Shown here: positions 1,733 through 13,544 of the stretch, one piece after another
How the letters are laid out: each line of letters begins with the position of its first letter
Numbering within the stretch: the stretch's first letter is position 1
Virus record (IMG/VR): IMGVR_UViG_3300014613_000020
Span: 34,980 to 98,979 of that record
DNA: 64,000 bases
Direction: 5' to 3' (one strand)
Source: a virus
The notes under the pieces: model-generated
Told to the model about the DNA's origin: nothing
Database searches by the model: none
The model's input: the letters and a program-made list of their open reading frames with translations, nothing else
Made by a program: the position numbers and the translations under genes

Positions 1733-2880
1733 TGCCGATCAGACTGATTGACCCGGATTACGAACCGGAGGAGACTCAATTCGAGTCCTACGTTGATGGG
1801 AAGTATCCCGTCAGTGGACTAACATTTTTTACAAAGGATGATAGTGGCAATTCGATATTTGTGGCACAGTCAGGCAATAGGATGGTTGCCAGGTATCGGA
1901 CTGTGCTGGAGGATGGGGGTGACGGCCCGCCTGGGTCGGTTGACAGGGGTGAGGTTCCATTGCTGGTGAGAGCGTTTGGCGGGGATGTGTCAGAACTTCC
2001 ACCATACAATCAGCCAAATCGTAGGTTATCTGTAGCAGAGACACTGATAAATGATTCAGAGAAGGTCATTATCGTTAATGTATCCAATGGATGGATAAAT
2101 AGTGTTCCTGGGATGCAGGTGAAGCCAGACTATTACCGGTTCAAATATGGCCGCATTATGACCAACAATCAGCTCGGGGAACCAAGCTGGATCACAGGTC
2201 AATATGGGCCATTTGCTATTGTAGCCATGGATATTGTGGGGGATGCGCAGGGCAACCCTTCCTCATTTGACCAGGTAAGGGTACGCAGTTTCTTAAACTA
2301 TCCATTATCTGTAGTTGATGGGGAATTGACGTGGGATGTTACCAAGTCCGGTTCCTACACAGCATCCTCATGGCGATTCTCAGAGTTTGCACGTAAACTG
2401 TGTGGTCATGAGTTTTTCAGTGTCTCGTTTGAGGATGAGTCAAATGTGATGCCTGAATTACATGATCTTGCAGTTGCAAATGGTTCTGTATACATGGGTA
2501 TCATTGAAAAGGACAAGAAAGGCAGGTCTGTTCTGAATCTCGGTTCACTGCAACCAGTGGGGGGTTCCTTCGACTTGATGGGAACTGAAGTCGAGGAGGA
2601 AGAGGTTGAGATGGAGTCTGACGCAGTTCAAGAGCTATACAAGGTTATCGAGAAATTATGTCCTACTAAGGCTTTTGCACAAAATGGAAAATTGACATCA
2701 GAGGCAGTGGAGTGGTGGAAAACTCTACCTGGAGATGATCCATCAGATGGAGAGTTGATTGTAGGAATCAGTGCATTGTGCAAGAAACATGATATACCTC
2801 ACAAATTTGCAGATATGGATGCTACGCACGTGAGCATTATCATTCAGTGGATGGAGGGTAGCGGAAATGACGAATTCTGA
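1732..2880 (+). CDS. hypothetical replication protein, possibly SSB or annealing protein
   Basis: 382 aa, acidic linker and C-terminal NDEF, located in the replication module. Function is inferred. Confidence 0.5.
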   Translation: MPIRLIDPDYEPEETQFESYVDGKYPVSGLTFFTKDDSGNSIFVAQSGNRMVARYRTVLEDGGDGPPGSVDRGEVPLLVRAFGGDVSELPPYNQPNRRLSVAETLINDSEKVIIVNVSNGWINSVPGMQVKPDYYRFKYGRIMTNNQLGEPSWITGQYGPFAIVAMDIVGDAQGNPSSFDQVRVRSFLNYPLSVVDGELTWDVTKSGSYTASSWRFSEFARKLCGHEFFSVSFEDESNVMPELHDLAVANGSVYMGIIEKDKKGRSVLNLGSLQPVGGSFDLMGTEVEEEEVEMESDAVQELYKVIEKLCPTKAFAQNGKLTSEAVEWWKTLPGDDPSDGELIVGISALCKKHDIPHKFADMDATHVSIIIQWMEGSGNDEF

Positions 2881-3028
2881 CATTAACAAAGTTAACACTG
2901 AATTGGAGACAATATTTTTGACGGATAACGATCTGTTAGGGTTTGACAAGATGTTTGACGATTTCTGGCCTTACTTGGTAGAGGACTATCTGGCTGAGGA
3001 AGATGTCGATAACGACAACGATTTTTAA
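2867..3028 (+). CDS. 53-aa highly acidic protein ending DNDNDF (below the ORF-track cutoff)
   Basis: ATG at 2867, TAA at 3026-3028; fills the gap between neighbours with short overlaps. Confidence 0.5.
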   Translation: MTNSDINKVNTELETIFLTDNDLLGFDKMFDDFWPYLVEDYLAEEDVDNDNDF

Positions 3029-3380
3029 TCGTAATGTCGTTGACGGAGCCAAACTAGGTGAGACCCACGGACTAGGTAGTTTTTATCAATATGATGATGA
3101 CCCACTCTCTACGCATTATGTCTATCCTGAATGGTACAATACGGAAAAGAAAGTTACTTCTTGGTCACTCGCTAAATGGTTATTGGAGGTTCATCAGCGT
3201 AGGGGGTGGGTCCCCTATTTCTCGGATAGAATAAATATGCGGCACGCGTCACCTCTTCTCAGGCAGTATGATGTTGCTACATTGATACGAGCTATACACT
3301 TCGCATCACAAGTTGCCACTAGACCTTTCTCATTCAAGCTGGTGAAAAAATGCCTCTCAGAAAAGTTCCTCGGCGAGTAG
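3003..3380 (+). CDS. hypothetical protein
   Basis: ORF upstream of and overlapping the primase gene. Confidence 0.55.
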   Translation: MSITTTIFNRNVVDGAKLGETHGLGSFYQYDDDPLSTHYVYPEWYNTEKKVTSWSLAKWLLEVHQRRGWVPYFSDRINMRHASPLLRQYDVATLIRAIHFASQVATRPFSFKLVKKCLSEKFLGE

Positions 3381-4306
3381 ATGTAGCCAAGGTAAAACAA
3401 GAAACTAATATAGCAGATGTCATAGGGTCTGTGGTGTCACTGAGCAAGGCGGGTGGACTGCTAAAAGGACTTTGCCCATTCCATCAGGAAAAGAATGCGA
3501 GTTTCACAGTGTACACAGATAGTTTTTTCTGCTTCTCGTGCAGAGAATCTGGGGATTTACTCAGTTTTGTGCAAAAGTTTTATAAACTTGATTTTCCTCA
3601 GGCATTGGAATGGCTGGCACAGAGGCAGGGAACTTTTGAACCTGCTCCTGTCGTAAGGCACGAGCATTCAAATCCCGTGCCGGTCATTCCAGAACTTGTT
3701 ACCTATTACAATTCCATGTTAAGGGATGAACATCGTGAATACTTCCACAGTCGCCTATTCAAGGATGAAACTATTGACAGAGAAGGATGGGGGTGGTCGG
3801 GAACCAGATTCTCAATACCTGTATGGGCAGGTAGACCGCAGGAAAGTGAATGCCTTGGGATAAGGCTTAGAAAGAAGGACGGAGATGGCGGACCGAAGTA
3901 TATTGGGATTCGGGGCAGCAATGATACTGCTCTTTACAATTCTTGGTCTCTCTATGGGGAAAAAGGAGCTTTTGTCCACTTCGGGGAGTTCGACTCGCAA
4001 CTGTGCTGTCAGGATGGGTTACCATCTGTTAGTCCTGTCAATGGCTGCGGCAGTTGGGATACTTCTTGGAATGAGCATTTCGTAGACAAAGAAGGAATTA
4101 TTATCATCCCAGACGTAGGGGAAGAGAAGTTCGGGCACAGATTGGCTGACATACTGGGCACAACTAGATGTCGCGTGTTGAATCTATCCAATGGATGGCC
4201 TGGAAAAGACTATAACGAGGGGCGAATGAATGGAGCCAAGCCCAAAGATTTGTTGAATCTGTTAGTTGATCAATATTCTCAAGTGGCAGTTGAATTTGAC
4301 TTTTAG
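3350..4306 (+). CDS. dnaG: DNA primase (CHC2 zinc finger plus TOPRIM-like domain)
   Basis: GLCPFHQEK...FFCFSC zinc finger; GEFD and IIIPD acidic motifs. Confidence 0.88.
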   Translation: MPLRKVPRRVDVAKVKQETNIADVIGSVVSLSKAGGLLKGLCPFHQEKNASFTVYTDSFFCFSCRESGDLLSFVQKFYKLDFPQALEWLAQRQGTFEPAPVVRHEHSNPVPVIPELVTYYNSMLRDEHREYFHSRLFKDETIDREGWGWSGTRFSIPVWAGRPQESECLGIRLRKKDGDGGPKYIGIRGSNDTALYNSWSLYGEKGAFVHFGEFDSQLCCQDGLPSVSPVNGCGSWDTSWNEHFVDKEGIIIIPDVGEEKFGHRLADILGTTRCRVLNLSNGWPGKDYNEGRMNGAKPKDLLNLLVDQYSQVAVEFDF

Positions 4307-4317
4307 GAGAGGCTATA

Positions 4318-4659
4318 ATGAGGAAAGTAAGCAATTTTAAGTTAGATAAAATTCCAGTATGGAAGATTGTTTTTGTTGTAACAACTTCTCCCTATTATGA
4401 GATGCACCGAATTTTGTTAATTGAGGATTGGCCTAATAGGGATGAGTTTACTCTAGTTGAGGGGTATCACCAATCTTTGTGCGGTTTTGATGATACCAAA
4501 TGGGAAGCTATGGTTTATACTTGTAACGAATTAAAACGATTGGTTATTGGCTGGGGTCGTGGCCCTTTTGAAATTGAACAAAAGGCGAAACCATTGATTT
4601 TACAATATTTGGAAAATGATTATGATTTGGTAGCAGAACGTGAAATGCTGGATAGATGA
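4318..4659 (+). CDS. hypothetical protein
   Basis: AGGAG RBS; AT-richer ORF between primase and helicase. Confidence 0.6.
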   Translation: MRKVSNFKLDKIPVWKIVFVVTTSPYYEMHRILLIEDWPNRDEFTLVEGYHQSLCGFDDTKWEAMVYTCNELKRLVIGWGRGPFEIEQKAKPLILQYLENDYDLVAEREMLDR

Positions 4660-6116
4660 AACTAGTAGAGTACGAGCAGGCATTACTATCAGCAATTTTG
4701 CAGCATCCTCCGACAATAAAAATCCTTGCCCCTGAACTAACAGCGGATAAGTTTGGATGGTCTGTAGGCGGAGAGGAAGGGGGTGGGCATAGACTTATAT
4801 ACCAAGCGGCTGTCAGTTGTCATCTCAAAGGAATTCCACCGGATGCCATATCCGTAGAAAGGGAGCTTGCTGATAAGATAGAAATCGCCGGCGGTGTATC
4901 ATATCTACGTCAATTGGTCACCATCCTGCCGACTCTGGGAGTGCGGGTCGTAAACGAGAACAGCGTGCGGAACTGGGCACGGGTAGTGGACAATCTAGGC
5001 AGGTTACGTGAATTGAGCAGAGTGGTGACTTCCTATTCAGACATGCTGATGGACAAAGAACGAGCATTAAGGGAGATTGACGATGTAGACACATTCATAT
5101 CAGAACTGATAGCGGAACTGTGGAAGGCACAGGGGGTTGTAAACTCGGATTATCAACATATCAGTATTGGAATTGGGGATTTTAGGAGAAGGTTGGAACA
5201 GGAGTTGCGAGGAAGATCAATCAGCATACCGGAAATAGGTTGGCCTTCATTCAGGAGTGCAAGCTTGCCTTTTATGGGGGGACTCACAGTCATTGCAGGT
5301 CTTCCAGGAGCGGGGAAGACACAGCTTGCACTCCAGATCATGCTAGGGCAGATAATTCAGGCCAAACGACGAGGCGCTTCAGGGTGTGTGGCGATAAACA
5401 GCTATGAGATGACATCCTGGCGTATCGTTAGTCGTTTGGCCTGTTGCCTTGCGGGGGTGGATTCATCATTGCTGCGAACGGGTAAAATCAAGGAAAGTTC
5501 TGAAGACGCCAAACGTCTGTTTGAGTGGACTGAGTTTTTAGAAGACTTCCCAATCTACATAGACGACTCGAACCTTACCACATCGGCTAGAATCAATTGG
5601 CAGTCGTCGGCGTTGCACGCCATAAACGGGCCTTTGTTGCACTTGGTGGTAGACTACGCGGAGAAAGTGCCTATGAATGAGACAGGCGAACGAGACTCAA
5701 GGGAACGGCAAGTTGCATCCACTTTTATTAATGTGGCGAACATAGCTAAGGCGACGGGCGCATGTGGGACTGTGTTGTCACAGTTTAACAACTCTGTGTT
5801 ATTCAACAAAAGTAAAATCGCGGGTGCGGGTGCGCTACGCTATGGTGGTGCAGGATGGCAGGCGGCAGACGTGCAGATGGAGGTTTGGAATCCAATCAGT
5901 ATGAGGGCAAACCAAATTGACTTCATCACGCCTGACAACTTGTCGGATGATGCTGTGTGGGTGATGGTGGAGAAGTACAGGGACGGGCCTGCGGGCGAGG
6001 TGTTCCCATTGAATTGGCAAGCACAATTTACACGATTCTCAGACCCCAAACTGTCTCAGACATTCGGGGCCGATTTGTACGAGGGATTGTCCGATTTGCG
6101 GGGAAGAGACTTCTAA
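4656..6116 (+). CDS. dnaB: replicative DNA helicase (DnaB family)
   Basis: N-terminal EQALLSAIL, Walker A GLPGAGKT, SYEM, VVDY, LSQF, KYRDGPAG. Confidence 0.92.
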   Translation: MKLVEYEQALLSAILQHPPTIKILAPELTADKFGWSVGGEEGGGHRLIYQAAVSCHLKGIPPDAISVERELADKIEIAGGVSYLRQLVTILPTLGVRVVNENSVRNWARVVDNLGRLRELSRVVTSYSDMLMDKERALREIDDVDTFISELIAELWKAQGVVNSDYQHISIGIGDFRRRLEQELRGRSISIPEIGWPSFRSASLPFMGGLTVIAGLPGAGKTQLALQIMLGQIIQAKRRGASGCVAINSYEMTSWRIVSRLACCLAGVDSSLLRTGKIKESSEDAKRLFEWTEFLEDFPIYIDDSNLTTSARINWQSSALHAINGPLLHLVVDYAEKVPMNETGERDSRERQVASTFINVANIAKATGACGTVLSQFNNSVLFNKSKIAGAGALRYGGAGWQAADVQMEVWNPISMRANQIDFITPDNLSDDAVWVMVEKYRDGPAGEVFPLNWQAQFTRFSDPKLSQTFGADLYEGLSDLRGRDF

Positions 6117-6147: not shown

Positions 6148-7438
6148 ATGGCGAATAGGCTAGGGCCTTATGAAGTAAACAGCATTATAAATGGGCATGT
6201 CATGGATGTTTTAAGAGAATTGCCTGATGAATCAATCCACTGCTGTGTAACTTCTCCGCCATACTGACTGGGGCCTGAGAGATTATTCTATTCCTCCAGT
6301 AATATGGCCTGATGGTATAGTGTCTTCTCTGGGCCTTGAACCGACGCCCGATCTTTTCGTGGCGCACCTGGTCGAGGTGTTCAGGGAGGTGAGGAGGGTT
6401 TTGCGGGGGGATGGTACTGTGTTTCTTAACATTGGGGATTCGTATGCTGGACATCATGGCAATAGCAAGGTCCCGGATGATGATGCTCCTAGCAACAAGC
6501 CTGGCTATTGGGAGAATATGCGACCTACAAGTATCGGCAATGGCCTTAAGCCCAAAGACCTCGTGCTAATACCCGAACGCTTGGCAATTGCCCTTCAAGA
6601 GGACGGATGATGGATACGTAGTAGAATCATCTGGGCAAAAGGGGTTTCGTTCGGCACACACAATACCGAGTGTCCTCGCTGCGGCCACAAGCACAAGGCC
6701 ACCTATTCAGGATCGTGTATGCCAGGCTCACAACAGGACAGGCCGACGACATCCTACGAGCATGTGTGGATGCTTAGTAAGAGCGCGAGATACTACTATG
6801 ATGGGGATGCAGTGAGGGAGCCACACCGAGAAGCGAGCCTCAAACGATGGCATGGGGAGCTTAAGCCGTCCACACAATCTAGGAACAGGGAAGGCATATA
6901 TCCTCAAGACGGCATTAACACTCTACACAAGATAAAAGCCGGTGATATTCTCAACCCAGCAGGCCGCACCCTACGCTCCGTCTGGCTCATAAACCCCCAA
7001 CCTCTGAGGGAAGCACACTTCGCAACCTATCCGCCCGACCTGGTAGAGCCGATGATCAAGGCGGGGACAAGCGAACGTGGGTGCTGCACTGAGTGTGGAA
7101 ATCCCTGGAAGAGGGTGATAGAGAGAAAGGTTATCAATCGTGATGATTGGGGGCCATCAAATCCAAAACATGCTACCCCGCAAGGTATTCATGGGCCTTC
7201 TATGAGGAATGAGGGTAGATGTGGAGATTCATTGAGTGCCACCATTGGCTGGCAACCCACCTGTACCTGTGGCGGTGATACAGAACCAGCTATCGTCCTC
7301 GATCCATTCATGGGCGCTGGCACAACAGCACTCGTAGCTAAACGGCTTGGGCGTAACTTTTTGGGCATTGAACTCAACCCGGAGTATATTAAAATAGCGG
7401 AGAATCGCATTTGTGTTGTGCAACCTGTTCTGTTCTAA
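6148..7438 (+). pseudogene. N6A/N4C DNA methyltransferase interrupted by a TGA plus 4-nt frameshift at 6265-6268 and an in-frame TGA at 6608-6610
   Basis: ATG 6148 ...CCVTSPPY*; the shifted frame gives WGLRDY...ALQEDG*WIRSRIIWAK...HFATYP...LDPFMGAGTT. The pieces join into one classical MTase. Confidence 0.85.
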
Positions 7439-7458
7439 CTTTTGTGCAAAAGCAGTAT

Positions 7459-7487
7459 TTGACTTTTGGGCAAGTCTGTGATATAAT
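7459..7487 (+). promoter_or_regulatory. sigma70-type promoter for the polymerase (probably leaderless, ATG 7495)
   Basis: TTGACT-17 bp-TATAAT. Confidence 0.8.
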
Positions 7488-7494
7488 GGGGGGT

Positions 7495-9216
7495 ATGGTG
7501 ATACATCGGAATGAGTTTCCAACAGAAGTTCCGCATGTGGTAGGAATAGACATAGAGACTACGTCAAATATGGGCCAATTGTCGCGATTGCACCTTGACG
7601 ACATAGCATTGGTGCAGATTGCCTGTGGTGATGATGTCTACGTGATTGACGACATTCGTCCTTTTGCACAAAAGTTAGAGTCGCTTTTAGCGGACGTTGA
7701 AACAGTGAAAGTATTCCACAACGCTGTGTTTGACCTGGGGTTCTTGAGCATAGCGTTGGGGAGTCCGATTATCAATAACGTGTTCGACACCATGCTTGCT
7801 GAGCGGGTGCTGACCAATGGGACGGGGTTGGAATGCTCACTGAAGGCTGTTGCTGATAGGTATTTGCAGGTTCACTTGGACAAAGGTTTGCAAACGTCGT
7901 TTGGCAGTTATTCCTTTACGGATGATCAGATAGAGTACGCTGCCAAGGACGCGCAAGTCCTGCCTGCTATCAGAGATATGCAGATGGCTAAACTCAGAGA
8001 GAACGGTTTGATGAAGGTGATGCAACTAGAGAATGACCTAGCGCCTATCGTAGCAGGCATGGAAGTTGCGGGGATGGGATTTGACGGCGACAGATGGAAA
8101 ATTCTATCGGATAGTTTGCTAAGGGAGAGTCAGGAAGTGAACAACAGGATTCAGTCAAACCTTGGGTTGGAACACACGATGACTGACTTCTTCGGTAATA
8201 TATCGGGAATCAACCTTAACTCGCGTGATCAGGTATTGTCACAATTAAAAAAGATTGGGATAGACCTTCCTGATTACAGAGATCAAACACTAAAGTCATA
8301 CGCGGCAAAGCATCCGGAATGCACAGTTCTTCAGGACATTATAGACTACAGGCACGCGACGAAGGCGCTATCATTCGCATACCACGACTACGTCAATCCG
8401 GTGACAGGCAGGATACACGCGAAGTTTACACAGCTGGGTTCACGCGCTGGTCGGTTCTCGTCGTCGGACCCAAACCTGCAACAAGTTCCGGCGCAAAAGC
8501 GATTTAGAGACTGTTTTGTTGCCAATGATGGCAAGTTACTGGTAACGGCTGATTACAGCCAACAGGAGATGCGTCTCATGGCGCAGGCATCTGGCGATGA
8601 GAACCTTATAAACGTGTGCACGGCGAGTGACATACATGCAGAAAACGCACGAGTGATGTACAAGGATGATTCAATCGACAAGAACGACAAAAGGCGTATG
8701 ATTGCCAAAAACGCTGGATTTGCGTGGCTGTATGGTAGCGGGCCTGAGACAATGGCGGTGACAGCGGGAATATCGGTAAGTGACGCGAGAGACGTGTTGG
8801 CAAAGCTGTCGGCATCCTATCCGATGGTTGACAAGTGGGCCAAACGGCAGTTAAAACAATTATATGAGAAAGGTTACATAGAAACCCTTCTAGGGCGCAG
8901 GAGATGGCTTGTGGGCGCGAAAGGAAGCGATGAGATAGTAAAGTATGCACGTATTGCTAAGAACACTCCCATCCAAGGCAGTGGCGCTGACATCATCAAA
9001 TATGCCCTTGTCGAGATAGGAACCATGCTGCGTGGCTATGCACAGATAATCTCAACAATCCACGATGAGATAATAGTAGAAGTGGATGAAGACGATGCCG
9101 AATCTGTGAAGGATTGCATAATACAATGCATGGAATATGCCGGTGAGAAGTTGATAGACCGAGTACCTGTGGTAGTAGAAGCAGGAATGGCAAAAGAATG
9201 GTCGAAAGGAGAGTAG
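7495..9216 (+). CDS. polA: DNA polymerase family A with 3'-5' exonuclease
   Basis: GIDIET, FHNAVFDL, YAAKDA, GRFSSSDPNLQQVP, ADYSQQEMR, AKNAGFAWLYG, NTPIQGSGAD, TIHDE. Confidence 0.95.
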   Translation: MVIHRNEFPTEVPHVVGIDIETTSNMGQLSRLHLDDIALVQIACGDDVYVIDDIRPFAQKLESLLADVETVKVFHNAVFDLGFLSIALGSPIINNVFDTMLAERVLTNGTGLECSLKAVADRYLQVHLDKGLQTSFGSYSFTDDQIEYAAKDAQVLPAIRDMQMAKLRENGLMKVMQLENDLAPIVAGMEVAGMGFDGDRWKILSDSLLRESQEVNNRIQSNLGLEHTMTDFFGNISGINLNSRDQVLSQLKKIGIDLPDYRDQTLKSYAAKHPECTVLQDIIDYRHATKALSFAYHDYVNPVTGRIHAKFTQLGSRAGRFSSSDPNLQQVPAQKRFRDCFVANDGKLLVTADYSQQEMRLMAQASGDENLINVCTASDIHAENARVMYKDDSIDKNDKRRMIAKNAGFAWLYGSGPETMAVTAGISVSDARDVLAKLSASYPMVDKWAKRQLKQLYEKGYIETLLGRRRWLVGAKGSDEIVKYARIAKNTPIQGSGADIIKYALVEIGTMLRGYAQIISTIHDEIIVEVDEDDAESVKDCIIQCMEYAGEKLIDRVPVVVEAGMAKEWSKGE

Positions 9217-9219
9217 AAA

Positions 9220-9723
9220 GTGGTAGGCACAGTAAAAATATCTTACCCCAAGAAGGCACTGATCAAACGAGTAGTAGGAGAAGATTCATATTACATTGAT
9301 GAGAAATCTCGGCTGATCACCACTGCGTTGTGGATAGGGCCACATGCACAAATAGCCCGGGAGACAGGGCATTATGCAGGCTGGGATCACCCGATGGAGC
9401 AGAACTACAGCAGCATACCGGATTGCGACGCGTTACTCTTTGATGGGGGTATTGCGGTGTACCCGACTGATATATTGCATCAATCCGAAGGTAATATCAT
9501 CTGGCGATTGTTTGTTGGTGATGGCTGGCGGGTGTTTGTCAACGAGCTATACCGTCACCTGTTCATCACACTGTACGGGGAACACCTGCGATACCGGCAA
9601 CTGAAAGCGGACGGACCAATCATCATCGAATGGGTGACGGGTATCGTCGGTCAGCTCATGCCAGGGAACTTCAGAGAGGACCCGCTGGCAGTGTTGGGCT
9701 TGCTGGAGGAGGTGGGTGCATGA
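9220..9723 (+). CDS. hypothetical protein
   Basis: ORF directly after polA. Confidence 0.6.
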   Translation: MVGTVKISYPKKALIKRVVGEDSYYIDEKSRLITTALWIGPHAQIARETGHYAGWDHPMEQNYSSIPDCDALLFDGGIAVYPTDILHQSEGNIIWRLFVGDGWRVFVNELYRHLFITLYGEHLRYRQLKADGPIIIEWVTGIVGQLMPGNFREDPLAVLGLLEEVGA

Positions 9724-9796
9724 CGATATTGATAATCTTCCTGGTGGTAGTGCTGTTCGTGATCATTGCCAATTTCGTGGTGATGGGGGACAGTCG

Positions 9797-9892
9797 GTGA
9801 TCTCTGACTGGCGGATCGAAGAGATGGACGTGATAGAGTGGGCGGCTACGTATGAGGGGCCACAGTTTCATGCCATGATCACGTCATACTGA
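9797..9892 (+). pseudogene. orphaned 5' fragment of the DNA methyltransferase at 10739
   Basis: (V)ISDWRIEEMDVIEWAATYEGPQFHAMITSY* aligns with MAKWEIVEADVMEWAKAYTGQKFHAAIMDPPY and breaks off just before DPPY. Confidence 0.85.
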
Positions 9893-10700
9893 TTTCTTTC
9901 ATAATCTTGATAACCATACTGGGAGCGTTATGAATGTCGTGTTCCCAGACACAAGTATAGTTGAATCCCCTATCAAGAGCTGTTTGTTTCTTGTTGACAT
10001 CATTGGCTACATTTTTCTGCTGTATAGAGCCGAGAGAGGCGTGGTCATAGAATCGAGGATCAGCATGCCAGAAGGTACCATGGATTTCAATGAGGGTGTT
10101 AGTGTCAGGGAGGAAAAAGTCGAATACATAACGGTTGAGTCTATATTGCCAAACGAAGCAAATTGCCATCTTGTCAAGAATGGCCGCGAACTTTGTTTCG
10201 AGTTTGTTAAAGGCTTTCCCAGTGCGCCCATCGGCTATTTGTTGAGTCGTAATCCTTGCTTGTCGGAGCCTAGCCCCAGGAACTTCAAACTGTTGTCGGT
10301 TGGCCTCCCGAATCTTTGCTTTAGCTTCTGGTGTATGTGTTTTCCCAAACATTCCATTGGCAGATCCAAAGTTAGCCTTGCTTCTAGTTTTGATATTACA
10401 TCGGCTTAGTCTGTAGCAAATACCAGTTTGTGATAAACCCACATAAGATGCAACTTGTGATTGAGAAAGCTCTTGGTTGGTATATAGATCATCTAAGAGT
10501 TCACATGTGATATTCTCTGTGCCATTACTAAGTAATTGCGCTTCACTGTTTGTACGACGTGGAATACCCAATTTCTTAAGCCACGTCCCAATAGCTGGCC
10601 TTGACACATTGAATAGAGCAGCAATCTCTTGTAGAGTTCTTTTCTCAACAAGATAGAGAAACTCCAGTTGTGACTTCTGAGTTTTTGTCAATTTGTTCAT
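9879..10700 (-). CDS. free-standing homing endonuclease (two HTH repeats, NUMOD3-like motif, Vsr/DUF559-type nuclease)
   Basis: NGMFGKTHTPEAKAKI; YVFDFFL..LIEIHGTFWHAD...VWEHDI. Likely start is ATG 10700, just after its own promoter. Confidence 0.85.
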   Translation of the reverse strand: MNKLTKTQKSQLEFLYLVEKRTLQEIAALFNVSRPAIGTWLKKLGIPRRTNSEAQLLSNGTENITCELLDDLYTNQELSQSQVASYVGLSQTGICYRLSRCNIKTRSKANFGSANGMFGKTHTPEAKAKIREANRQQFEVPGARLRQARITTQQIADGRTGKAFNKLETKFAAILDKMAICFVWQYRLNRYVFDFFLPDTNTLIEIHGTFWHADPRFYDHASLGSIQQKNVANDVNKKQTALDRGFNYTCVWEHDIHNAPSMVIKIMKEISMT

Positions 10701-10707
10701 ATCAGAT

Positions 10708-10736
10708 AGTATAGCACGAAACTTGAAAGAAGGCAA
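10708..10736 (-). promoter_or_regulatory. promoter for the homing endonuclease (leaderless), overlapping the translation-initiation region of the opposite-strand MTase
   Basis: Minus strand reads TTGCCT-17 bp-TATACT, then 7 nt to ATG. Confidence 0.65.
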
Positions 10737-10738
10737 AT

Positions 10739-12460
10739 ATGGCAAAATGGGAAATCGTAGAAGCTGACGTTATGGAGTGGGCAAAGGCATACACAGGCCA
10801 AAAATTTCATGCTGCCATTATGGACCCACCCTATCATCTAGGGCCAAAAGGGTTCATGAACAGGGGCTGGGATGCTGGTGAGTATGGGATTTCTTTTCGA
10901 CCTGAGACCTGGGCTGCTCTAGCCGAGCACCTCCTCCCCGGTGCATGGATATTTGCCTTTGCAAGCTCGCGCGGGTGGCACAGGATGGCAGTAGCGATGG
11001 AGGACGCAGGGTTGATATTGCAACCGAGTATCTTCGTCAATGGGGAAGTGCTGGAGCTGCCACTGGCTTTTCTGCATGTGGAGGGGCAATCTTTCCCAAA
11101 AGCGACGAGGATTGACATAAAACTGGATCAAAATGCTGGCGTAACAGGCAACAGAAGTCGCAAAGTCTATGGTGATGGTAACCAATACTATCCAACACCT
11201 GACAGAACAAATCCTAATCCAATGGATTGGGAAACTAAAGCACAAGATCGCTTTACTGAATACAATGCCGTGACTGATTTGGCTCAAGCTTGGCAAGGCC
11301 ACCGTTACGGGGGGCAGGTTCTCAAAAATGCAGCCACTACGGTGGTTCTGGCCTACAAGCCTCTCCCAGGACAAGTTAGACCCATCATCTGCGCACAGAA
11401 GCTCTGGACGACGCCACGACTCGATTGCATCGTGGAGACTGGGGCGGGGGCGCTCTGGGTGGATGGGGGAAGGATTGGGACAGAGTTTGTCGCAACAACT
11501 GGCCGATCCGATGAAAAGCATGCCAAGAGTCAAAGCCTTGGCGATTCGTGGAGTGGCGTCGTAGATGAAACGCCACATCAAGGCCGCTGGCCAGCCAACT
11601 TTTGCCTTCTACATTCGCCTGGGTGTATCAGGGTAGGGACGAAACGGGTGAAGGGAAGTGGTCGTCTTAGTGACAATCCTAGCCCTGGGGGGTATGATGT
11701 TGGATTTGGTGGCAGTAGAGATAACAATAAGTACGCTGACGCCGATGGGCTAGAAGAGGTCGAGGAGTGGAGGTGTGTCGAGGGATGCGCGGTAAAGGCG
11801 CTAGGGGAGCAGAGTGGACAGCGATTGTCAGGCTATCGAGTAAACCCAAGTACAAATAAAACAACGTGGTTTGGTGCAAATGATGGTAGCTATATTGAGG
11901 GGGAACGTGGTTATTCAGATTCAGGCTCCTGCACCCGCTTCTACCACAACGCTGACTGGTCCTACGAGATCGCCGAACGTCTGGCGATGGTGAATCCGGT
12001 ACTTTACATGGCAAAGGCGGGACGGGGGGAGAGGGACGCGGGGCTTGAAGAGTTTGATCTAAAAGCAGTCAACCCAAATTATGGTAAGGGAGGGTTCAAA
12101 CGACCTACAGATGAACCAAAGCGAGAGATTGCACCATTCCGCAATCCCCATCCCACGGTCAAACCTATTGCCTTAATCCGCTGGCTTGCCACTTTGCTCC
12201 TTCCACCCAAATCCTATGCACCTTGTTGTGTCCTAGTCCCCTTTGCTGGTGTAGCGTCCGAAGGCATTGGTTGCATGTTAGCTGGATGGGAAGAAATAAT
12301 AATGATAGAACAGGAAAGTGAATATGTAGAGATTGGTAAAGCAAGAATGAGCTGGTGGCAAGAAAGATATGACAGAGGATTACATGATGTCAAAGAGATA
12401 TTAAAGTCAAATAAAAAGAAGAAAGACATTCCGAATCAAATCAGATTGAAAGGACTATAA
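10739..12460 (+). CDS. DNA methyltransferase (N6A/N4C, DPPY), long phage type
   Basis: MDPPY, GRWPAN, NPHPTVKPIALIRWL, VPFAGVAS. Confidence 0.9.
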   Translation: MAKWEIVEADVMEWAKAYTGQKFHAAIMDPPYHLGPKGFMNRGWDAGEYGISFRPETWAALAEHLLPGAWIFAFASSRGWHRMAVAMEDAGLILQPSIFVNGEVLELPLAFLHVEGQSFPKATRIDIKLDQNAGVTGNRSRKVYGDGNQYYPTPDRTNPNPMDWETKAQDRFTEYNAVTDLAQAWQGHRYGGQVLKNAATTVVLAYKPLPGQVRPIICAQKLWTTPRLDCIVETGAGALWVDGGRIGTEFVATTGRSDEKHAKSQSLGDSWSGVVDETPHQGRWPANFCLLHSPGCIRVGTKRVKGSGRLSDNPSPGGYDVGFGGSRDNNKYADADGLEEVEEWRCVEGCAVKALGEQSGQRLSGYRVNPSTNKTTWFGANDGSYIEGERGYSDSGSCTRFYHNADWSYEIAERLAMVNPVLYMAKAGRGERDAGLEEFDLKAVNPNYGKGGFKRPTDEPKREIAPFRNPHPTVKPIALIRWLATLLLPPKSYAPCCVLVPFAGVASEGIGCMLAGWEEIIMIEQESEYVEIGKARMSWWQERYDRGLHDVKEILKSNKKKKDIPNQIRLKGL

Positions 12461-12461
12461 A

Positions 12462-13544
12462 ATGAAAGCAATAGTAAATCAAGGAATGTTAGCTCACGGA
12501 TTATCAATCGTTGGCAGGGCGGTGGCAGGAAGGTCAACTTTGCCAATTCTAGGCAATGTGATGGTGTCCACCGGTAGCGAAGGACTGACATTGTCAGCTA
12601 CGAACTTGGAATTGATGATAAGTTGCAGAGTAACCGCGGAAGTGCGAGAAGAAGGTGCAACCACGATACCGGCAAGGACTCTGACAGACCTTGTCCGAGC
12701 TCTTCCCGACTCACCAATATCACTGTCGGTGAGTGAGAATGAGAACACCACGTTGACGTGTGACGGGTCGAGATCACGAATAAAAGGGATACCTGCTGTT
12801 GAGTTCCCAAACATCTATCCGTTCCCCGAAGACAACTCCTTGACATTGTTGGGAATCGGTGGTATAATTAAACAAGTCGCAATGGCAGCGGCAACGGACA
12901 CGTCAAGGCCGGTGTTGGAAGGTGTGTTGGTAGAACTGTCCGACAACAAACTCATCATGGCAGCGGCAGATGGATTCAGACTAGCGGTATGCAATGTGGA
13001 TACAGGCGTTAACGGCAGCATATCTGTTATCATCCCCGCTAAAGCATTATCAGAAGTGGCGAAGATGGATGGTGAAGTTGAACTGTCACTGAGTGAGAAC
13101 AGGGCATTCTTTAGAAGTGGGGGTGTGCTGTTGGTCACACAACTGATAGAAGGCAAGTTCCCCGACTATAACCAGATAATACCCAAGGATTGGACTACAA
13201 GGACCGAACTCAGGACTCAGGACTTGTTGCACGCCGTCAGGATGGCGAGTGTGTTTGCGAGAGATTCGTCAGACATCATTAAATTGGCAGTTGATGAGAA
13301 CAGTTGCGTCGTGTCGGCTCAGAGCGCTGAGACGGGTGACCATTCAGGCAAGATAGACGTGGATTCGGAAGGGAGTGACTTGCTGATAGGGGTGAATGGC
13401 AAGTATCTGATGGATTCACTGAGTGTGATGGGAACCGACAAAGTGACGATAGACATGCAGGGACCGTCAAATCCAATGGTGATTCGTCCTGTGGATGGTG
13501 GTGACCTGACGCACGTTGTGATGCCAGTACATATATCAGAATGA
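12462..13544 (+). CDS. dnaN: DNA polymerase III beta sliding clamp
   Basis: RSTLPILGNV, ATNLE, SRPVLEGV, AADGFRLA, GKFPDYNQIIP, VVMPV; full length at 360 aa. Confidence 0.96.
   Translation: MKAIVNQGMLAHGLSIVGRAVAGRSTLPILGNVMVSTGSEGLTLSATNLELMISCRVTAEVREEGATTIPARTLTDLVRALPDSPISLSVSENENTTLTCDGSRSRIKGIPAVEFPNIYPFPEDNSLTLLGIGGIIKQVAMAAATDTSRPVLEGVLVELSDNKLIMAAADGFRLAVCNVDTGVNGSISVIIPAKALSEVAKMDGEVELSLSENRAFFRSGGVLLVTQLIEGKFPDYNQIIPKDWTTRTELRTQDLLHAVRMASVFARDSSDIIKLAVDENSCVVSAQSAETGDHSGKIDVDSEGSDLLIGVNGKYLMDSLSVMGTDKVTIDMQGPSNPMVIRPVDGGDLTHVVMPVHISE

Follow-up and report, generated by a model that had tools for sequence, protein, structure and literature searches.

The window analysed here (the last 64 kb of the 98,979-bp IMG/VR virus record IMGVR_UViG_3300014613_000020, numbered from its own first nucleotide) contains a DNA methyltransferase (methylase) gene whose 5' end is present twice. 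A dead copy of the gene start (the stub, 9797-9892, plus strand) breaks off just ahead of the codons for the catalytic DPPY motif and is followed by an antisense gene for a Vsr-type homing endonuclease, beyond which a second, diverged start at 10739 is fused to DPPY and the rest of the methylase. Relatives of the endonuclease are found repeatedly at this same site of the methylase family. The arrangement is probably best explained by intron-less homing, in which the methylase 5' end of a donor was co-converted with the endonuclease gene.

Anatomy of the duplicated methylase start

The stub runs from a GTG at 9797 to an ATC at 9878-9880 and comprises 27 family-typical codons (...DVIEWAATYEGPQFHAMI / ...WRIEEMDVIEWAATYEGPQFHAMI). 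It aligned without gaps to residues 1-27 of the methylase that starts at 10739, with 14 of the 27 residues identical (52%; BLASTP E 2e-8). In a hidden Markov model (HMM) built from 111 N-termini of the family, the stub matched positions 3-27 (E 8e-12) and the live start positions 1-32 (E 7e-17), which indicates that the stub is a real copy of the family N-terminus. Its homology ends two codons ahead of the D of DPPY; the sequence then continues ACG TCA TAC TGA, and no DPPY follows. The dead copy is free of indels and stop codons across the 27 aligned codons, while 13 of the 27 residues differ from those of the live copy. N-termini that are only 52% identical and show no indel point to different lineages and not to a recent local duplication.

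The endonuclease is encoded on the minus strand by a free-standing open reading frame (ORF) of 273 residues (9879-10700, with the ATG at 10700 and the stop codon at 9879-9881), assigned from the ORF list and from Pfam and PHROG matches, and its stop codon falls on the last homologous codon of the stub. In an AlphaFold2 model with a mean predicted local distance difference test score of 89.5, two three-helix units precede the nuclease domain and were assigned as two helix-turn-helix (HTH) units (about residues 1-100). Pfam placed an HTH of the Sigma70_r4 type at residues 1-34 and, above its cutoff, a NUMOD3 domain at residues 107-131 (10308-10382). The Vsr-like EDxHD nuclease domain (about residues 159-258, 9927-10226) was assigned by profile and by fold. 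A profile of 25 homologs matched the catalytic domain of I-Bth0305I (3r3p, E 2.4e-5) and then Vsr (1cw0/1vsr, E 1e-4), and 3r3p was likewise the top Foldseek match of the model (TM-score 0.80-0.81 on the target, root-mean-square deviation about 3 Å), with 1vsr next. Residues E168, D194, H212 (in FWH) and D234 (in ND) are invariant among the 25 homologs. D194 aligns with the Asp of the Vsr PDF motif, and the invariant Asp, His and Asp align to the Vsr catalytic residues Asp51, His69 and Asp97, with an extra Glu upstream. The PHROGs matches were to "HNH/homing endonuclease" families. As modelled, the fold is Vsr-like with I-Bth0305I as its best match, and on these profile matches the antisense gene is taken to be a genuine homing-type endonuclease of the EDxHD/Vsr-like family, of which it shows the fold, the composite catalytic motif and the modular NUMOD/HTH N-terminus.

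The live methylase gene (10739-12460, plus strand) begins with the ATG at 10739 and is an open frame of 573 codons. Its putative replacement 5' end of 28 codons (10739-10822, MAKWEIVEADVMEWAKAYTGQKFHAAIM; ORF list, BLASTP and HMM) is in frame with the remainder of an N6/N4 (beta-class) DNA methyltransferase (10823-12460), which was identified by phrog_67 (E 2e-15) and by a weak match to Pfam PF01555. DPPY is encoded at 10823-10834 (residues 29-32), and the motifs FASSRGWHR, NPHPTVKP and PFAGVASE lie downstream. The 2580 homologs of the methylase were mostly metagenomic, the best being 46% identical. The methylase also matched many mycobacteriophage "DNA methylases", among them those of cluster E/F, at 27-31% identity. 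In about 100 of the 120 best homologs the N-terminus, M..W.I...DV..WA..Y.GP.FHA.L., runs directly into DPPY with no endonuclease, which would be the patchy distribution expected of a homing element.

The starts of the two divergent genes are separated by exactly 38 bp (10701-10738), which form a putative control region. A consensus scan of this region identified a promoter-like sequence for the endonuclease, TTGCCT-17-TATACT (10736-10708, minus strand), with the -35 element at 10736-10731 and a -10 element at 10713-10708 that carries a TG extension and ends 7 nt ahead of the ATG. Similar extended -10 elements (TGnTAnnnT) lie directly upstream of the endonuclease starts in three related loci (L002, L004 and L038). 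On the plus strand, the promoter-like sequence TTGTCA-16-TAGTAT (10685-10712) and a Shine-Dalgarno (SD)-like GAAAGAAGG at about 10725-10733 precede the live methylase start; the -10 element lies at 10707-10712 and the -35 element at 10685-10690.

No intron and no other RNA family was found in 8500-13000 by Rfam at a permissive E-value, and no intron family was found by Rfam in ten related loci, where the sole matches were a transfer RNA in L041 and a sub-threshold small RNA in L019. An intron was rejected as an account of the locus on the basis that no group I or group II ribozyme core was found by Rfam. An intein was likewise rejected, since the methylase gave no match to an intein domain in Pfam, the endonuclease is encoded on the opposite strand, and the junction residues are not nucleophiles.

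An earlier, sequence-only reading of this DNA had described a dead methylase N-terminus that breaks before DPPY, an antisense HTH-NUMOD3-Vsr-type endonuclease, a diverged second N-terminus fused to the rest of the methylase, and the absence of intron and intein features, and the analyses above agree with it on all four points. It had also placed the endonuclease promoter and the methylase initiation region together in a 38-bp spacer. The length, the promoter-like sites of the endonuclease and the SD-like and -10 elements of the methylase were found as described, whereas the methylase -35 element lies outside the spacer, within the endonuclease coding sequence.

Related endonuclease loci

Fifty protein homologs of the endonuclease were recovered, the top ones being 55-56% identical; the closest group (P0122-P0145, 47-56% identical) came for the most part from Logan contigs of 1-2 kb. 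About 125 loci were obtained by scanning contigs of viral, metagenome and genome collections and were searched in six frames with profiles of the endonuclease, of the methylase family and of the methylase N-terminus; the genome contig scan contributed distant endonucleases only. About 62 distinct loci had the nuclease domain, and in 26 of them a methylase of the family was present at or around the endonuclease, in both orientations. The same 10-codon stretch (FHAxx-DPPY-xx-FMGK) was hit repeatedly, in both orientations and by endonucleases with different DNA-binding modules, which provides strong indirect evidence that this stretch is the endonuclease target.

The arrangement seen in the window recurred in one independent phage, L004/L006/L034 (116-kb and 70-kb contigs), where an antisense endonuclease, a 47-bp spacer, a complete methylase start and a stub are present. 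The L004 stub, VSYSVVHADIIEWAA, lies beyond the 3' end of the endonuclease gene, and its GTG, preceded by GGAGG, overlaps the TGA of an unrelated upstream ORF. It breaks about 12 codons earlier than the stub of the window, and the endonuclease ORF reads into it. Between the window and L004, the endonucleases are about 49% and the methylases about 43% identical, and still both stubs are intact, which suggests that the two stub-forming events were independent and recent. At L004:2815-2830, a 5-nt insert (TGAAT) between the HPT and VKP codons of the methylase introduces a stop codon and a change of frame; judged by this insert, the L004 methylase would be either a pseudogene or a second split.

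Other relatives occupy the same region differently. In L011 and L057, the endonuclease is divergent from an intact methylase start and there is no stub. In L002, L003 and L005, the methylase stub extends undamaged as far as the D of DPPY and is followed by an endonuclease on the same strand and then by the last ~25 codons of the methylase only. The L002 locus (4881-5870), from a low-GC phage, has an intact endonuclease, and of the methylase, whose body is lost, the C-terminal tail ..KVAEARLKYWKEKK.. is left. In L038, a same-strand endonuclease lies directly upstream of the methylase, which carries a 6-nt, stop-bearing insert (TGACTT) at DPP|Y (2470-2560). The sequence TTTACAA...GTTTCAAGG around this insert recurs upstream of the endonuclease start in L002. 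Residues 1-31 of another homolog, P0153, resemble a methylase N-terminus (..LIRTDVLDWL..KYHG) ahead of the endonuclease part in a weak match (E 0.026), and this protein may represent another same-strand insertion a few codons before DPPY.

A sister clade of endonucleases with zinc-finger N-termini is nested antisense within the methylase, immediately behind DPPYGL, and the methylase ORF, 697-766 residues long, continues across the endonuclease gene. In L012, for example, the methylase (2232-4532, minus strand) contains the endonuclease (3582-4418, plus strand); the other nested loci are L015, L017, L018, L019, L021, L030, L040, L041, L042, L048, L052, L058 and L066. The two frames are codon-aligned, so that only the endonuclease codons TTA, CTA and TCA would stop the methylase. 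None of the three codons was found in 16 endonucleases, those of the 14 nested loci and of L051 and L062, which have the upstream/split layout. In L012 (GC 0.38), 15.4 such codons were expected (P about 3e-9), and the corresponding P values for L030, L021 and L019 were 7e-4 to 4e-3; endonucleases of similar GC that lie outside methylases contain 6-14 of these codons. By analogy, the nested type can be regarded as an antisense, Vsr-type variant of the published ShiLan arrangement.

In a subclade of the nested clade (support 99; support and clade placement are from a quick tree), the endonuclease lies antisense just upstream of an N-terminal methylase piece. The methylase is cut by a stop codon right after DPPY(G/D/E), and after a spacer of 10-17 nt that contains ATACC and often GGAG, an ATG follows that is the M of the conserved FMGK. 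Such split methylases were identified from the sequence, on the minus strand in each case, at L014:4450-4550, L016:4475-4575, L022:4400-4500, L044:1210-1310, L050:2355-2455, L051:1140-1240 and L062:200-300. The pattern resembles a gene split by stop and restart where the endonuclease has its target, and the split is possibly a way of making the site immune.

One locus beyond the 26 (L008, L009) has a different N6_N4 methylase divergent from the endonuclease. At L008:3411-5438, a close endonuclease homolog and a divergent methylase of 395 residues are separated by a spacer of about 70 bp; the family profile missed this methylase, so the link to methylases would extend beyond one subfamily. The antisense ORFs across the endonucleases of L007, L008, L035 and L037 reach no recognisable host genes.

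The homing model and its alternatives

In the homing model, the endonuclease would bind DNA through its HTH and NUMOD3 modules and cut endonuclease-free methylase alleles within the ...FHAxx-DPPY...FMGK coding stretch. During mixed infection the break would be repaired from an endonuclease-carrying genome, with the homology of the methylase body used on the right side. The copied tract would carry the endonuclease gene and the divergent promoter region along with the 5' end of the donor methylase, and would be joined on the left side to the recipient's own resected methylase start. The product would be the native start as a stub, then the antisense endonuclease, then a donor start that continues into DPPY and the body. 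No splicing would be needed to keep the methylase whole, since a promoter and a ribosome-binding site would come in with the new 5' end. Cleavage, the direction of transfer and the immunity of the new allele are steps that we infer; site-specific cutting of element-free alleles and super-Mendelian inheritance would be in line with the patchy distribution and the recurrent insertion site, which support them indirectly. The imported start reads FHAAIMDPPY, compared with FHAALMDAPY in L011 and the FHALLCDPPY usual in the family, and it is plausibly resistant to cleavage.

We hold with moderate confidence that the stub is the original start of the phage gene and that the 10739 start arrived with the endonuclease. 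A small hydrophobic ORF of 26 codons (MTILIIFLVVVLFVIIANFVVMGDSR, 9720-9800, plus strand; sequence and ORF list) connects the stub to the upstream gene ORF167: its ATG overlaps the ORF167 stop codon (ATGA), and its TGA overlaps the GTG of the stub (GTGA). This chain reads as the native operon context of the original methylase start, as is typical of phage operons, and the coupling supports the native status of the stub. The live start is preceded instead by the promoter-like and SD-like elements beside the endonuclease, where promoter function would be expected from the consensus matches. At third codon positions, the fraction of G+C (GC3) reaches 0.71 in the stub, compared with 0.43 in the new start and 0.40 in the endonuclease gene; the contrast between stub and new start, at 28 codons each, is suggestive only and not significant. 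Neither GC nor GC3 delimited the transferred tract.

For the left junction, a one-off illegitimate join, made when an upstream-sitting endonuclease entered a genome with a different upstream gene, is somewhat favoured; we lean towards such a scar because most of the methylase-linked relatives have no stub. It is rather less probable, though a serious candidate, that the stub was carried in the donor as a left homology arm and that the whole unit homes as a cassette. We suggest only tentatively that the window holds a self-contained cassette, made up of the endonuclease, the divergent promoter block and a portable methylase start with the displaced native start as its left arm, and that it represents one of at least three splicing-free solutions of one endonuclease superfamily on the same catalytic-motif codons. 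The other two would be antisense nesting with read-through and the stop-restart split at the M of FMGK. With a displaced start as its left arm, such a cassette could enter any family member whatever lies upstream.

Several observations weigh against the homing model with a replaced start. A stub is present in only 2 of the 26 methylase-linked loci; since most of these relatives are arranged otherwise, a replacement 5' end would be one outcome among several and no rule of the family. No endonuclease-free or near-identical allele of the window phage was found in the collections searched with the methylase, PolA, ORF167 and the back-translated stub peptide, and the loci found with PolA (L114-L117) had no methylase of the window family, so that the insertion is deduced from one genome and distant relatives. 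The occupied allele retains an intact DPPY-coding stretch, which makes its immunity to cutting an assumption. The promoter matches were no more numerous than in shuffled controls, and the GC3 of the methylase body itself varies from 0.23 to 0.70. Comparison of both N-termini with 50 homologs gave no separation, with a slight edge to the new start, so that the donor tract may extend over a large part or the whole of the gene.

These results also bear on the checks and the interpretation offered in the sequence-only reading. Endonuclease-free alleles in which the start runs straight into DPPY were found at the level of the family but not for the phage of the window. The proposed check on endonuclease homologs gave a positive result, in that they are strongly linked to the DPPY region of the methylase family and L004 shows the same layout; most methylase-linked relatives use other arrangements. 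The homing interpretation is supported in part, by the homing-type enzyme, the displaced native start and the working start with its own signals; replacement of the 5' end is not general in the family.

The polarity could be reversed, such that the 10739 start is native and the endonuclease came in upstream, dragging a fragment of the methylase start of a previous host, the 9797 stub, on its 3' flank. This would agree with L011 and L057, where free-standing endonucleases lie upstream of an intact methylase with no stub, and with the N-termini of the closest relatives of the methylase body, which resemble the 10739 copy marginally more than they do the stub. It is nevertheless unlikely, given that the GTG of the stub sits in a native coupled chain with the small ORF and ORF167, that a GTGA overlap likewise couples the L004 stub to the gene upstream of it, an unrelated one, and that the start at 10739 has promoter-like signals of its own and a low GC3 like that of the endonuclease. 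A different history, in which an ancestral antisense endonuclease lay within a read-through methylase, as in L012 and L058, and rearrangement later ended the read-through and provided another start, would account for the lack of TTA, CTA and TCA in endonuclease codons 99-273. Because of this lack the codon-aligned plus-strand frame is open over 9882-10409, where about 4.4 stops would be expected (P about 0.006), and nested read-through is common in the sister clade. The open frame does not, however, match the reading frame of the stub or that of the live methylase, and the first 98 endonuclease codons give 11 antisense stops. The nested forms moreover keep DPPYGL ahead of the insert, whereas the stub of the window has no DPPY, and they fall in a different clade of the quick tree. 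We consider this history quite improbable, and the open frame may be what is left of a nuclease domain that was once nested; it includes an ORF of 159 residues (9930-10409, plus strand).

The presence of two copies of one gene segment on either side of the insert is also what would result from local tandem duplication of the methylase start followed by the separate arrival of a nuclease gene between the copies, with no site-specific homing. The copies differ by 48% in protein, and the non-functional one has neither indel nor stop codon, which does not fit decay from an identical duplicate; homologous nucleases have, furthermore, hit the same gene site repeatedly in unrelated phages. This explanation is very improbable and was rejected on the 13 of 27 differing residues and the undamaged state of the dead copy. 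The divergent gene pair with its short shared control region, together with the Vsr-like nuclease fold, might instead suggest a functional partner of the methylase, in a divergent restriction-modification pair or as a Vsr-type repair enzyme, and no mobile element. L002 retains an intact nuclease although the methylase body is deleted, and in L038 the nuclease stands beside a methylase with a stop at DPP|Y, situations that would be lethal for a restriction partner. NUMOD3, the tandem HTH units and the best match to a proven homing enzyme speak against a partner as well, and the stub and the nested or split host genes are hallmarks of invasion. With the nuclease kept where the cognate methylase is destroyed, the restriction-partner explanation fails; it was rejected and is hardly credible.

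Known systems and genomic context

The closest layout was found in fungal mitochondria, where endonuclease ORFs termed mORFs insert in atp6, atp9, cox2 and nad3 together with a foreign C-terminal segment, and the native C-terminus is left downstream (PMC3630166). The cases are Glomus atp6, atp9, cox2 and nad3 (PMC3630166), with atp6 of Allomyces macrogynus as a further case mentioned by citation in the same paper. As in the window, an endonuclease ORF lies in a protein gene with no intron or intein, the gene core is joined in frame to a foreign duplicate of its terminal segment, the native segment persists beyond the endonuclease as an unused remnant, and the two copies have clearly diverged. 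The mORFs differ in that the 3' end is replaced, the enzymes are of the LAGLIDADG or GIY-YIG type, and the insertion is usually on the same strand and often in phase. The window shows the layout, with the endonuclease between the fused foreign and the displaced native gene end, as a mirror image at the 5' end of a phage gene and with an antisense EDxHD/Vsr-like enzyme, a situation in which the incoming segment must bring a promoter and a ribosome-binding site. The locus would thus be a 5'-end phage counterpart of the fungal mitochondrial gene-end replacement.

Phage methylases of the same kind are a known hot spot, in which an intein, a LAGLIDADG domain in frame and an out-of-frame "ShiLan" HNH endonuclease that is read through by the methylase have been described (PMC9957025, PMC11855218); the words antisense and duplication are absent from the text of both papers. 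The methylase of the window and the actinophage methylases with ShiLan probably belong to the same broad family, to judge from the matches to cluster E/F mycobacteriophage methylases at 27-31% identity. In both systems a homing endonuclease occupies a methylase gene without splicing, and the distribution is patchy. ShiLan differs in being a same-strand, out-of-frame HNH that the methylase reads through, whereas in the window the element is not read through, as its open frame (9882-10409 only) connects with neither stub nor methylase, and the place of the interrupted gene start is taken by a new one. L012, L042, L058 and other nested loci are read through like ShiLan, but are antisense and encode a Vsr-type enzyme.

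The EDxHD (Vsr-like) homing family, which includes I-Bth0305I (PMC3239194), first came to light in the form of free-standing genes that separate the two parts of "fractured" genes (PMC2677866), and its members are known to break host genes as free-standing genes and to bring control elements (PMC3239194, PMC2677866). The enzyme of the window shares the fold, the catalytic residues and the modular NUMOD/HTH N-terminus with I-Bth0305I and its family. The known members reside in a group I intron of recA or separate the split-intein halves of replication genes, whereas a methylase target, an antisense orientation and replacement of a gene start are undescribed in the family.

Free-standing endonucleases of the T4 type, such as SegF, SegG and MobE, home without an intron: the target gene adjoins the endonuclease gene, the endonuclease-free allele is cut, and the flanks are co-converted. 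These elements resemble the model for the window in that a free-standing endonuclease lies beside its target and spreads with flanking host sequence. They differ in lying between genes or in splitting a gene into two working pieces, with no duplicated, displaced start; an example of a split gene is Aeh1 nrdA, which is reported to be divided by mobE (PMC3045599). No published description was found of an endonuclease at DPPY with a replaced gene start.

The main interest of the locus lies in the whole series of splicing-free solutions found at one methylase motif. If the model is correct, a selfish endonuclease can occupy the codons by a catalytic motif with neither intron nor intein, by means of a replacement start with its own expression signals, and one source of the short orphan ORFs and chimeric gene starts of phage genomes would be explained. 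The mobile elements through which this methylase family is a hot spot for recombination within the gene would gain a Vsr-type endonuclease lineage and new layouts. The stub, nested, split and deleted forms at one site would constitute a natural series on the trade-off between damage to the host and spread, and the series could yield nucleases aimed at a conserved methylase motif.

The locus lies in a replication block on the plus strand, which comprises a family A DNA polymerase (PolA; 7411-9216, ORF list and Pfam), ORF167 (9220-9723, ORF list), the methylase and a DnaN clamp (12462-13544, ORF list and Pfam). If the operon is still translated, a stub peptide of 31 residues would be expected.

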